From Fibrobacterota bacterium (lineage in GTDB: Bacteria > Fibrobacterota > Fibrobacteria > UBA5070), in contig JAKPQQ010000116.1 in NCBI GenBank assembly GCA_029557215.1, positions 10,103 through 74,102 on the forward strand: a stretch of DNA of 64,000 bases, read 5' to 3'. Below are positions 24,876 through 28,343 of the stretch, one piece after another. How positions within the stretch are numbered: the stretch's first letter is position 1; the number at the start of each line of letters is the position of its first letter. A model generated the notes under the pieces. It saw only the letters and a list, made by a program, of their open reading frames with translations, was not told the origin of the DNA and made no database searches. The position numbers were made by a program, and so were the translations under genes.

Positions 24876-27800
24876 TCAATACTTCGGCTTGATGCGTGGA
24901 GTGCTCACGATCTTCATGTAGAGAAGGTTGCCGAGCCGTTTGTAGGCGTCCTCCAATCCGCCGAACGCGGTTTTCCCTCTCAATTTGATCACGTCTTTTT
25001 TGTCGTCGTCCGTGAGGTTGAACAAGGAAAGGCTTGCGATTGCTTTTGCGGCGATGGCGGGCTCCTTGTCTGGCTCGCACAGGTGTTCGTTGATCGGCAC
25101 TTCTCGGCGTTTCGCCTTGGTTGTTTCCAGGAAATAGCTTGGCCATCGCGTGTCGATGACGTTCTGGACGACGAATTCAAGCGGTAGAATGGACGACTTG
25201 CTGCCTCTGGGTTTGGGGACCTTGCAGGTGATGATCGAAGGCACGAAGGACTCGACCTTTCGAATCTTGTTGACTGCGTCCAATTTGTCCTTCTCGTCCG
25301 GATCCAGGGGCTTTTTCAGCACGCCGGTGCCGAATGGCTCGAGAGGCTGGTAACCCGAAGCCTCCACGCTGAATTTCACCACGAGAGTGTCGTCCTCGAA
25401 TGCCTTCACCATTTTCGATTCGAAATTCTTGAACATCGCACCTTGGCTGTTTTTGTTGGCTCTATCGGTAAGTGGCGTCAGATTCTGCCACGCATCTCCG
25501 GGGCCTCCGAGGCCGTCGTGGAGAAGATGGCCTCGGACGTAGTAGCTCTTTGAGCGGTCCTTGCGGCCGACGATCGTGTCCCAGTGAGCCCCTGCCGCGC
25601 TTGGAATGTTCGGACTCCCGAAACGCATCGAAGTCAACTTCTTCACGGTAGCGGAAGTTCCGAATCCACCCTTCAGTCCACCGAATACCGGGGGCGTTGA
25701 TGGTTCCTTGATCGACAGATCGTTCAGGACCTTCGCGGTCATTTTTGCGAGTTCCGCGACATCCTTGTCGTATTCCGCCTGCAACTTCTTCTGGTCGGCC
25801 GGTGCGAGCGGCTTTCCCGGCGAAGAAATCGATACCACGTTGTCATCGAGTTTCTTGGCCATCGCCAGCAAAGGATCCATCGCCGCGTCGGTCAACTTCT
25901 CTCCGTACTTGACTTTCAATGCCTTGAGGAAATTCGCGTAGATGATCGGCGTGGATTCGATCGTGAATTTCGCGGACGCGCCTTTTCCCCGCATGTAGAG
26001 GTGGTGGCGTTTCCCTTTCGCCGTCGAAAAGGGGCGCTTCCTTAGCCACCAGTCCGCTAGTCCAGCCTTGGCCTTCGCGAACAGCGCCTTGGCCGTCTTC
26101 GCGATCCAGGCGACCACCTTGTCCAATGCCGCGTCCACCTTGCCGCGGATCTTGGCGATCACGCCCATGATCTTGTCGGCGATCTTCCCCAGTCCCGCGA
26201 ATCCCATGAGGAAATTGATGGCAAGGCCCAACAGTCCCGCCAGGACGCTTTCCACCTTGGCCACCGCCGCTCCGATGTTGCCCGCGGCGATGGCCGCGAT
26301 GGAGTTGACAAAAGCCGTCACCACCTGGACGATCTTGGAGATCTTGCGCACGAACACCATGACGGTGTCGTAGATCGCCAGGATCGCCGAGATGAACCCC
26401 GCGCCGGGAATGAACATGGCCACCAGCCTGGGGATCGCCTTCTGCACGATCAGGCTCTTCACCATGTCCAGGATCCCGCCGACCACCATCTCCTTGAGGT
26501 TGCCCAGCTCCTCCTTGATCTTCTCCCAGGCGGCCGCAGGTCCGTCGCGCACCAGCGCCACCACGATGTCCAGCGTCTTTTCGATCACGGTCATGGCGGG
26601 TTCGCCGACCACCTTCGCGATCTTGCCGCGGATGATCTTCCAGGAAACGCCCAGCACCGACAGCACGAAGGTCACGAGCTCCTTGAGCGAGAACGACTTG
26701 GGGATGTACACGCCCGGAAGGCTTCCCGTGAGCCAGTCGATGAGCCCGGCCTGCAGGTGGGGCACGAAGTTCTTCTTGAACGCGTCGAACCCGCCGATCC
26801 CGGCCTTGACCAGGTTCTTCATGAACGGAAGCGGATTTTTCAGGATGGATTTCAGGGCCGCGCCGGTCTTCTTGATGTGTGCCCACGCACCCGGCGACAC
26901 GCAATCGAAGATGATCTCCAGGAGGTTCCAGATGGCGTTGCCCGCCCACGACGCGAACTGCAGCAGGAATCCGCCGAACACCTTGCCAACCTTCAGGAAC
27001 GCCTTGGGGAGCAGCACGATGTCCAGAAGCTCGAGCGAGGTGAACGCCTGCACGAACAACGACGGAATCCGCGAAACGAATTTCACCAGGTCGGTCGTGG
27101 CTCCCTTGAACCAGGCGAAGGCGCGCGGGATCGCGTTGGCCTTCTTCATGTTCTCCCAGACTTCGCCCTGTCCGATCAGGCGCAGGAATCCGCCGATCAA
27201 CGTTTCCGCGTCGCGGGGCACGGCCTCGCCGGTGATGGGATCCTTGCCCAGCACGGCGCAAAGGAGGTTCCAGCCTTCGGTCCCCTTGGCCAGCGCCCCG
27301 ATGGGCTTGAGGATCGCGTCCTTGACGAGCGTGACGAATCCTGTCACGAGTCCGACCACGAAGTCCTTGATGCGCGCGATGGGGCTGGTGAAGATCCGCT
27401 TGGCCCGGTTCCAGACGTCGCCCAGATCGAAGATGTCGCGCCACGACAGTCCGTCGATGAACTCGTCGAGCGCCTGCTTGATGGAACTCCCGATGTCGCC
27501 CAGCGCCTTGAGCTGGTTGTCCACCCACGCTCCGGCCTTCTCGAAGATCCCGTGGTTGTCCAGCGCCTGGGTGATCAACGCCCCGCCCGGAACGAACTCG
27601 ATCACGGCGCGCAGGACGTTGGCCGCGCTGCGGTCCACACGCGACATGTTGATCGGGTTGAACCCCATCAGGATGGTCAGCATCCGGAATCCGGGGATCA
27701 GGTTCGCCTTGTCGGCGAAGTAGTCCAGCGCGTCGGAAACGCCCAGGCGCTGGATGGCGGGAGCGGGGGTCCGCGAAACGGCCGGCGCCGCGGCCGTGGA

Positions 27801-28343
27801 CGACGCTTTTTGTTGCGCGCCGCCCTGCTGGATCGTGTGGGCCAGTTCGTGCGCGACCAACCGCAGTCCGTCGGGCGTGGAAGGCTGGAACGCGCCCCGA
27901 GCGAAGAACACGTGCGATCCCACCGTGAACGCCTGGGCGGAAAAGCGGTTGGACAACGCCGCGGCGCGCTCGTCGGTGTGGAACCTCACGCCCGAGAAGT
28001 CGGCGCCGAACTTGGCTCCCATGGAGCGCGAAAGCGAAGCGGGCATCGCCGATCCGCCCGACATCTCGGACTGCAGCATCGAGGCGTCGGCGGATCGCGC
28101 AGGGGATCCGGAGGCCGACGGCGCGCACGAGATCGCCACCGGCGCGCCGCTCGTGCTGGATCCCACGACCTTGTCGGCCACGGATTCGGCTTCGCGTTCG
28201 GCGGGGTCGGCGGCTTGGGACACGCGCAGGGACGATCGCTGGACGCGCGGCGAAAGCGGAGCGTGGAACGCGAACGACGGTTCGGGACCGCGCGACGGCT
28301 CGGGCCGACGCTGAACCGCCACGGTAGTGACGGATTCCGCCAC
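24876..28343 (-). CDS. CIS effector candidate: DUF4157 (eCIS core domain, HExxH zincin-like), long helical/hydrophobic region, and C-terminal putative His-Me finger nuclease; about 1155 aa
   Basis: Only the last roughly 1155 aa of ORF 24876..31118 is protein-like. In-frame GTG at 28343 (alternative 28322) lies just after the ATPase stop. DUF4157 block DPAEREAESVADKVV...FGADFSGVRFHTDERAAALSNRFSAQAFTVGSHVFFARGAF...LVAHELAHTIQQ. C-terminal motif YYVRGHLLHDGLGGPGDAWQNLTPLTDRANKN. Confidence 0.8.
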   Translation of the reverse strand: MAESVTTVAVQRRPEPSRGPEPSFAFHAPLSPRVQRSSLRVSQAADPAEREAESVADKVVGSSTSGAPVAISCAPSASGSPARSADASMLQSEMSGGSAMPASLSRSMGAKFGADFSGVRFHTDERAAALSNRFSAQAFTVGSHVFFARGAFQPSTPDGLRLVAHELAHTIQQGGAQQKASSTAAAPAVSRTPAPAIQRLGVSDALDYFADKANLIPGFRMLTILMGFNPINMSRVDRSAANVLRAVIEFVPGGALITQALDNHGIFEKAGAWVDNQLKALGDIGSSIKQALDEFIDGLSWRDIFDLGDVWNRAKRIFTSPIARIKDFVVGLVTGFVTLVKDAILKPIGALAKGTEGWNLLCAVLGKDPITGEAVPRDAETLIGGFLRLIGQGEVWENMKKANAIPRAFAWFKGATTDLVKFVSRIPSLFVQAFTSLELLDIVLLPKAFLKVGKVFGGFLLQFASWAGNAIWNLLEIIFDCVSPGAWAHIKKTGAALKSILKNPLPFMKNLVKAGIGGFDAFKKNFVPHLQAGLIDWLTGSLPGVYIPKSFSLKELVTFVLSVLGVSWKIIRGKIAKVVGEPAMTVIEKTLDIVVALVRDGPAAAWEKIKEELGNLKEMVVGGILDMVKSLIVQKAIPRLVAMFIPGAGFISAILAIYDTVMVFVRKISKIVQVVTAFVNSIAAIAAGNIGAAVAKVESVLAGLLGLAINFLMGFAGLGKIADKIMGVIAKIRGKVDAALDKVVAWIAKTAKALFAKAKAGLADWWLRKRPFSTAKGKRHHLYMRGKGASAKFTIESTPIIYANFLKALKVKYGEKLTDAAMDPLLAMAKKLDDNVVSISSPGKPLAPADQKKLQAEYDKDVAELAKMTAKVLNDLSIKEPSTPPVFGGLKGGFGTSATVKKLTSMRFGSPNIPSAAGAHWDTIVGRKDRSKSYYVRGHLLHDGLGGPGDAWQNLTPLTDRANKNSQGAMFKNFESKMVKAFEDDTLVVKFSVEASGYQPLEPFGTGVLKKPLDPDEKDKLDAVNKIRKVESFVPSIITCKVPKPRGSKSSILPLEFVVQNVIDTRWPSYFLETTKAKRREVPINEHLCEPDKEPAIAAKAIASLSLFNLTDDDKKDVIKLRGKTAFGGLEDAYKRLGNLLYMKIVSTPRIKPKY

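Follow-up and report, generated by a model that had tools for sequence, protein, structure and literature searches.

We propose that the last gene of an eCIS (extracellular contractile injection system) operon, found in a 64,000-nucleotide stretch of contig JAKPQQ010000116.1 (hereafter the window), very probably encodes an injected cargo protein, a polymorphic toxin resembling the effector Tme. The gene lies on the minus strand. Its product would combine a conserved carrier, made of a DUF4157 domain and a long helical trunk, with an exchangeable nuclease cassette at the C-terminus; its loading into the particle and its ejection are suggested here by analogy with other systems. The effector type as such was described between 2021 and 2024, and both its architecture and the puzzle of its missing immunity gene are published (PMC8213781, PMC11126660). 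What the present case adds are mapped boundaries of the cassette and a contrast in immunity genes between cassette types. The parts of the gene and of its product are as follows, with residues counted from the GTG codon at 28343.

24876-28367 (-): whole effector gene, with the stop codon at 24876-24878 and the start at GTG 28343 or TTG 28367
28224-28343 (-): disordered N-terminus rich in Ser, Ala and Pro, residues 1 to about 40, judged from composition and from a predicted local distance difference test score (pLDDT) of about 30 for residues 1-37
27804-28223 (-): DUF4157/eCIS_core domain, with structural borders at residues 41-180 (pLDDT 86-96 in the AlphaFold2 model)
26073-27740 (-): conserved all-helical trunk, residues 202-757, from the AlphaFold2 model and PHROG tape-measure profiles
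26187-26438 (-): two transmembrane-like hydrophobic helical stretches, residues 636-666 (26346-26438) and 697-719 (26187-26255), from Kyte-Doolittle hydropathy
25704-26072 (-): pre-toxin adaptor at the start of the exchangeable module, residues 758-880, a beta-hairpin and three helices in the model (module elements E13-38 and H45-119)
25089-25703 (-): predicted nuclease core of the EndA/NucA-type (D)RGH beta-beta-alpha-Me class, residues 881-1085, mixed alpha/beta, from PF13930, Foldseek and invariant residues
24879-25088 (-): three-helix C-terminal tail, residues 1086-1155, probably a helix-hairpin-helix DNA-binding module (pLDDT at least 94)

The nuclease module and its carrier

A reading of this DNA from sequence only had assigned a putative His-Me nuclease to the C-terminus of the protein, and comparison of profiles and structures leads to the same place. 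The C-terminal module (residues 758-1155, 398 amino acids) was modelled from an alignment of 19 sequences, which was built from full-length homologue hits and whose members are 22-86% identical to the window module; the mean pLDDT is 85. In this model two strands (residues 935-939 and 955-959) and a helix (residues 970-981) make up a beta-beta-alpha core. The residues G938, H939, N954, N963 and E975 are invariant in the alignment, and the RGH motif, at 25527-25535, contains H939 and stands in a VRGH context. The top eight Foldseek matches in the PDB are all streptococcal DRGH nucleases, namely NucA (4qh0/4qgo), Spd1 (2xgr/2xh3) and Sda1 (5fgw), each with a probability of 1.0 and with template-modelling scores of 0.43-0.56 normalised to the target, the best being 4qh0 (E 8e-4, template-modelling score 0.49-0.56). 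The Pfam family PF13930 (Endonuclea_NS_2) is matched at E<0.01 by 18 of the 19 homologues, and two family members pass its cut-off with 32.9 and 33.1 bits. This evidence supports the assignment of the module to the non-specific, Mg-dependent type of (D)RGH beta-beta-alpha-Me nucleases, in the EndA/NucA/Sda1 family, with the activity itself as a prediction from sequence and model. Several results weigh on the other side. The E-values from Foldseek, 8e-4 to 2e-2, are modest, the match of PF13930 to the window protein itself is sub-threshold (20.9-22.9 bits against a curated 27; E 1e-4 to 4.5e-4), and sequence and profile searches against PDB chains reached no nuclease, the streptococcal ones included. 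A search of the window protein against NCBIfam gave no match.

The sequence-only reading had also considered that some 200 residues at the end of the protein might form an inhibitory extension. The model, PF13930 and HHH_3 evidence gives this segment a different identity: it comprises the remainder of the nuclease fold and, after it, a probable DNA-binding tail. HHH_3 (PF12836) is matched in the tail of five of the 19 homologues (best E 1.3e-6), the window protein itself having no match, and a profile of the tail finds a ComEA-related PDB chain weakly (E 0.16); a helix-hairpin-helix module is thus the probable identity of the tail. The nuclease module is widely distributed, as an exhaustive profile search places it in 2584 representative protein clusters, and among six long carriers of the module that were sampled, five have eCIS_core at the N-terminus.

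At the opposite end of the protein, PF13699 (eCIS_core) matches residues 100-176 (27816-28046) with 97 bits against a cut-off of 22. The putative peptidase motif HExxH, earlier described as intact, is indeed so: it reads HELAH at residues 165-169 (27837-27851), and H165, E166, H169, Q172 and Q173 are invariant in an alignment of 121 sequences. Upstream of the Pfam borders a confidently modelled helix carries the motif DPAExEA (residues 46-52, 28190-28208), in which D46, E49, E51 and A52 each reach a conservation of 90% or more in the same alignment; the functional DUF4157 domain probably extends beyond the Pfam model. The disordered N-terminus is a probable loading signal for the AAA+ ATPase, by analogy with the cargo proteins Cgo1 and Cgo2 of AlgoCIS. 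Between the DUF4157 domain and the trunk the model shows a short disordered linker.

The middle of the protein had been regarded as a long region of hydrophobic helices. These are present, as 19-residue means on the Kyte-Doolittle scale peak at up to 2.1 at the hydrophobic stretches and the full-length AlphaFold2 model (predicted template-modelling score 0.36) contains helices only over the approximately 550 residues of the trunk. The description nevertheless falls short, because no other part of the protein is conserved as strongly. In the 121 sequences, which come from several phyla, about 65 columns of the trunk are invariant, and the trunk is 83-98% identical to the closest homologues (P0001-P0007), in which identity over the N-terminus and DUF4157 domain is as low as 53-68%. 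Matches to the trunk come from three tape-measure families of PHROG: phrog_1272 (E 4.4e-10, residues 293-784), phrog_1535 (E 1.5e-5) and phrog_4070 (E 0.003). Judged by these profiles, it is related to tape-measure proteins and is more than a mere linker. Two points count against this relation. Fold searches with the full-length model against the PDB and viral structures returned nothing significant, the best viral match being a tape-measure protein with E 0.064 and a probability of 0.07; the link therefore comes from sequence profiles, and these describe a helical region of biased composition.

How might such a protein be delivered? By analogy with other injection systems, we suggest that the AAA+ ATPase encoded just upstream would recognise the disordered N-terminus, after which the effector would be threaded into the tube lumen. 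The DUF4157 domain would dock it at the tube-initiator/spike end, and the helical, tape-measure-like trunk would lie along the lumen. Contraction of the sheath would expel the effector, the two hydrophobic helical stretches may help its C-terminal end to cross or insert into the target membrane, and the nuclease would then attack DNA. Until ejection the effector would most likely be unfolded, sequestered or only weakly active, and the producer protected in this way; alternatively, the producers might be cells fated to lyse.

Exchange of the nuclease cassette

A lower GC content of the DNA encoding the C-terminal part had been taken as a hint of a swapped toxin module. Computation of the profile shows that it is not uniform: the GC content at third codon positions (GC3) drops from 0.911 over 552 trunk codons to 0.719 over 398 C-terminal codons (z = 7.8), the values for other genes of the window being 0.79-0.86. 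The compositional break is real and affects synonymous sites, but its position has to be corrected, as it lies near residues 757-790, at about nucleotide 26,070, slightly upstream of the 26,000 given at first. The homologues are informative about the same part of the protein. All of the best 120 extend up to residue 751 and 76 of the 120 cover residue 776, with many alignments stopping exactly at 757. The tails of these 120 proteins form 27 clusters, and domains were assigned to them by clustering and by Pfam searches with the cluster representatives; among the domains are an APOBEC-like deaminase, Ntox15, HNH_4, RNase_A_bac and AHH. A conserved N-terminal delivery part joined to unrelated C-terminal toxin domains is the trait of polymorphic toxins and is present in this family. 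Orthologues vary in the 3' module and conserve the 5' two-thirds of the gene, which bears out the proposal of a swap.

Alignment of the window with the DNA of a sister contig (L003) gives the strongest evidence of the exchange and maps it. Identity is 93% from 31762 to 25938 and is then lost apart from a patch of 70%; from 24953 onwards, across the adjoining HAD hydrolase gene, it is 96%. The last 26 effector codons (24876-24953) are conserved across the exchanged alleles. Comparison with the protein P0003 gives an identity of 98% for the trunk and of 41-58% for the C-terminal parts, with the fall to 41% coming at the pre-toxin adaptor. Since identity to L003 is high in the trunk, low in the C-terminal module and high again in the flank, the cassette has been exchanged. 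From these alignments we conclude that a divergent allele of one nuclease family was swapped by recombination between close relatives, with the junctions placed near codons 757-800 and inside the last 26 codons. A cassette of about one kilobase with mapped junctions is a clean natural example of the re-arming of an eCIS effector, and the junctions mark where heterologous payloads could be grafted onto the conserved carrier.

A further region of the operon differs between relatives. At 31764-33405 (-) the 3' end of a putative tail-fibre gene and the next open reading frame, of 117 amino acids, are wholly unlike both L003 and L001, the latter a contig that is 99% identical to the window elsewhere. 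The region has a low GC3 (0.53-0.71) and a weak Beta_helix match (E 0.002). It is probably a second exchanged cassette, consisting of a receptor-binding tip and a small partner gene. The tip of the tail fibre was swapped alongside the toxin cassette of this operon, from which it seems that payload and target range are modules that evolve separately.

Operon context and the missing immunity gene

The minus-strand open reading frame ending at 24876 is a real gene. Its frame is open far upstream, GC3 supports a single coding frame along the entire gene, and no other frame carries a GC3 coding signal inside 24876-26072. There are two in-frame starts, and the protein therefore has 1155 amino acids from GTG 28343 or 1163 from TTG 28367. 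The GTG, chosen at first, does lie 20 nucleotides past the stop codon of the ATPase gene (28364-28366), as had been stated. The likely start, however, is TTG 28367, which overlaps the ATPase TGA (as TTGA) and is preceded by GAGG 7 nucleotides upstream; a 4-nucleotide overlapping start of this kind was chosen by gene callers in the orthologues L001, L002, L004, L027 and L030. The overlap suggests that the effector is possibly translationally coupled to its loading ATPase. The worry that the true start might lie far downstream can be put aside, as the DUF4157 part is retained with either codon.

The position of the gene at the end of an eCIS operon, recognised in the sequence-only reading, is confirmed. 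Its minus-strand genes between 53705 and 28364 include Pvc16_N, sheath, two gp19 tube, CIS_tube, gpD, Baseplate_J, P2_I and an AAA ATPase. The effector comes immediately behind the ATPase and closes the operon, whereas other lineages have the two in the reverse order. The closest genome match is a metagenome-assembled genome of Fibrobacterota (72% identity), and the effector protein family is spread over many phyla. Two genes adjoin the effector.

28364-30277 (-): AAA+ ATPase gene, Afp15/Pvc15-like, immediately upstream of the effector (PF00004, E 2.4e-24; orthologue gene calls)
24104-24874 (+): convergent HAD-family hydrolase gene abutting the effector stop (HAD_2, E 2.6e-35)

The HAD hydrolase gene belongs to the flanking chromosome and lies outside the injection system; the synteny of HAD, lactamase_B, CN_hydrolase and chorismate synthase genes is common to the window, L001 and L004. 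The convergent stop codons of the HAD and effector genes (24872-24878) are one nucleotide apart, which leaves no intergenic room for a terminator, and the same arrangement is found in L001 and L003. Between the two gp19-type tube genes, at about 47078-49600 (-), a coding region of about 830 amino acids has a strong GC3 signal and no Pfam match at E<0.01. The Afp14 (tape-measure) position, 30277-31761 (-), is taken by a gene of 495 amino acids whose orthologues end in an invariant C-terminal AGLDRDPGW motif. This gene has no Pfam or PHROG match, and comparison by hhalign with the CIS_TMP protein of L006, which occupies the equivalent position, reveals no similarity. A conserved gene fills the position in the window, L001-L003, L027, L028, L029 and L030, and the version in L004 is shorter (206 amino acids).

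No immunity gene had been seen next to the effector, and this observation extends to its relatives: no immunity-like gene follows the nuclease allele in the window or in 11 other loci with a readable downstream gene (12 in total; the window, L001, L002, L003, L004, L006, L007, L016, L024, L027, L028 and L030). The next gene encodes a HAD hydrolase in the window, L001 and L003, an AAA ATPase in L016 and L024, a metallo-beta-lactamase-fold protein in L027, a glycosyltransferase in L028, an AbiE toxin-antitoxin pair in L006, a weakly matching CHAP/NlpC_P60-like protein in L002/L007 and L004, and a small single-transmembrane protein in L030. In all three loci read in which this trunk carries Ntox15, the very next gene encodes GAD-like and T6SS_Tdi1_C domains. 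The proteins encoded by these Tdi1-like genes have 189-192 amino acids.

L011, 7117-7692: Tdi1-like gene after an Ntox15 effector
L017, 7181-7747: Tdi1-like gene after an Ntox15 effector
L022, 6880-7455: Tdi1-like gene after an Ntox15 effector

The Tdi1 type is known as T6SS (type VI secretion system) immunity and occurs here in eCIS loci. The lack of an immunity gene thus goes with the type of cassette and does not characterise the family as a whole.

Two candidates for an immunity gene in the related loci were considered and rejected. The open reading frame of 182 amino acids downstream in L002 and L004 has a weak CHAP/NlpC_P60 match, is absent from the window and is 85% conserved between loci whose toxin C-termini differ. 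The downstream protein of 155-157 amino acids in L002 and L030 has a single transmembrane helix and is likewise absent from the window; its gene precedes a KAP NTPase gene and, in L002, sits after the CHAP-like gene. The stretches downstream of the toxin in these relatives (L002 9621-14939, L004 9532-10080, L030 7551-11474) hold between them the 182-amino-acid CHAP/NlpC_P60-like gene, the 155-157-amino-acid single-transmembrane gene, KAP_NTPase and a gene with GH108 and PG_binding_3. They may form a lysis or release module, of which the window has none.

What does the pattern of immunity genes imply for the producer? The presence of Tdi1 genes with Ntox15 alleles and of nothing comparable with EndA-like alleles puts more sharply the question of how producers of an eCIS withstand the nucleases that they make. 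A eukaryote-specific target, offered earlier as one answer, would be insufficient by itself against a non-specific nuclease. As the EndA-like cassettes never have an immunity gene in the loci read, and the Ntox15 cassettes always do, the comparison suggests that the nuclease alleles are built so as not to harm the producer; for instance, they might fold or become active only after ejection, or the trunk, the DUF4157 domain or the ATPase might keep them inactive. A point against protection without an immunity gene, in this form or in the one suggested above, is that immunity might be encoded at another place in the genome. We offer safety by design as a tentative and somewhat doubtful explanation. 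If true, it would amount to a toxin deployment that needs no immunity protein and whose mechanism can be dissected.

Other accounts of the missing immunity gene have to be weighed. The system might act on the producer population itself, through lysis-linked DNA release or developmental cell death, and not on foreign cells, in which case immunity would be pointless. Tme promotes extracellular DNA release and sporulation in S. davawensis (PMC11126660), and the lysis-like genes downstream of the toxin in relatives (CHAP/NlpC_P60-like; GH108 with PG_binding_3) point in the same direction. However, the exchange of the tail-fibre 3' end between nearly identical contigs suits changing external targets, and Ntox15 alleles with Tdi1-type immunity on the same trunk are typical of interbacterial weapons, and on balance we consider action on the producer population unlikely. 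The nuclease fold might also be degenerate and bind DNA without cutting it, which would explain a dispensable immunity gene. The sub-threshold Pfam score and the consistent absence of immunity genes agree with this proposal, as does the limited activity of S. davawensis Tme-C, which forms a stable complex with DNA; yet Tme-C degrades both DNA and RNA, and this activity depends on a histidine (PMC11126660), some homologues of the window module exceed the PF13930 cut-off, and the catalytic-type residues H939, N954, N963 and E975 have been kept without change across 19 sequences as little as 22% identical to the window module. Loss of catalysis therefore strikes us as very unlikely.

The relation of the trunk to tape-measure proteins raises a different alternative, in which the protein would be a structural tape measure setting the length of the tube, with the nuclease as an accessory domain. 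The matches to three PHROG families speak for such a role, and no gene of the operon matches Pfam CIS_TMP, the gene at the Afp14 position being itself unlike the CIS_TMP protein of L006. That position is nevertheless already filled by a conserved gene in the window and its relatives, and eCIS_core proteins with the same nuclease module vary in length from about 1100 to more than 2000 amino acids. Moreover, AlgoCIS particles assemble without their DUF4157 cargo proteins (PMC8894135), and hypervariable C-terminal toxin cassettes, some of them with immunity genes, are a signature of effectors. A ruler function is for these reasons highly improbable, and we retain the interpretation of the protein as a cargo toxin whose conserved carrier bears an exchangeable nuclease.

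Comparison with known systems

The closest known relative of the window protein is the S. davawensis effector Tme (BN159_7576), to which we liken it by its published description. Tme has a DUF4157 domain, transmembrane helices, a region resembling tape-measure proteins and a DRGH nuclease like EndA, and the mutation H2051A abolishes its toxicity; its authors proposed an exchangeable C-terminus, and no immunity gene was reported for it (PMC11126660). Common to both proteins are an N-terminal DUF4157 domain in an unusually long open reading frame, transmembrane-like helices, remote tape-measure homology and a C-terminal (D)RGH nuclease. They differ in length, with 2247 amino acids in Tme and 1155 in the window protein, and in order, as about 70% of Tme is disordered whereas the trunk described here is ordered and highly conserved. 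In addition, the window nuclease is followed by a probable helix-hairpin-helix tail, and its setting is a tail-fibre-bearing eCIS, probably of a member of the Fibrobacterota.

Toxins linked to DUF4157 in other eCIS loci have long linkers and frequently lack immunity genes (PMC8213781). The window protein shares with these toxins (PMC8213781, PMC11297309) the sequence of an N-terminal DUF4157 domain, a long linker and a C-terminal toxin domain; unlike theirs, its 'linker' is a conserved, tape-measure-like module of about 550 amino acids with a sharp exchange boundary at residue 757. In AlgoCIS the tube lumen is filled by Cgo1 and Cgo2 (PMC8894135), loading of the cargo requires its disordered N-terminal region (bioRxiv 10.64898/2026.05.27.728243), and an AAA+ protein assists in the loading. 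By description these cargo proteins resemble the window protein in their disordered N-terminus, DUF4157 domain and large C-terminal part, and Cgo2, with 1228 amino acids, is of similar size; the C-terminal part of Cgo2 has no reported function, whereas that of the window protein is a recognisable nuclease. Binding to the tube initiator has been described for the DUF4157 protein Sle2 (PMC13277306).

The streptococcal nucleases EndA, NucA, Spd1 and Sda1 share the predicted fold of the module and the arrangement of RGH and Asn/Asn/Glu on a beta-beta-alpha core. Identity to them is only 11-14%, with a hidden Markov model score below the cut-off, and they are free secreted proteins, whereas the window domain is fused to an injection-system carrier and to a probable helix-hairpin-helix tail. 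With the classical polymorphic toxins (Rhs, contact-dependent inhibition, T6SS Tde-Tdi) the family has in common a conserved delivery part and hypervariable toxin cassettes, and its Ntox15 members carry the Tdi1-type immunity of that group. The window allele departs from the classical pattern in having no adjacent immunity gene and in the position of its 3' recombination junction, which falls inside the C-terminus of the toxin itself and not beyond an immunity gene.

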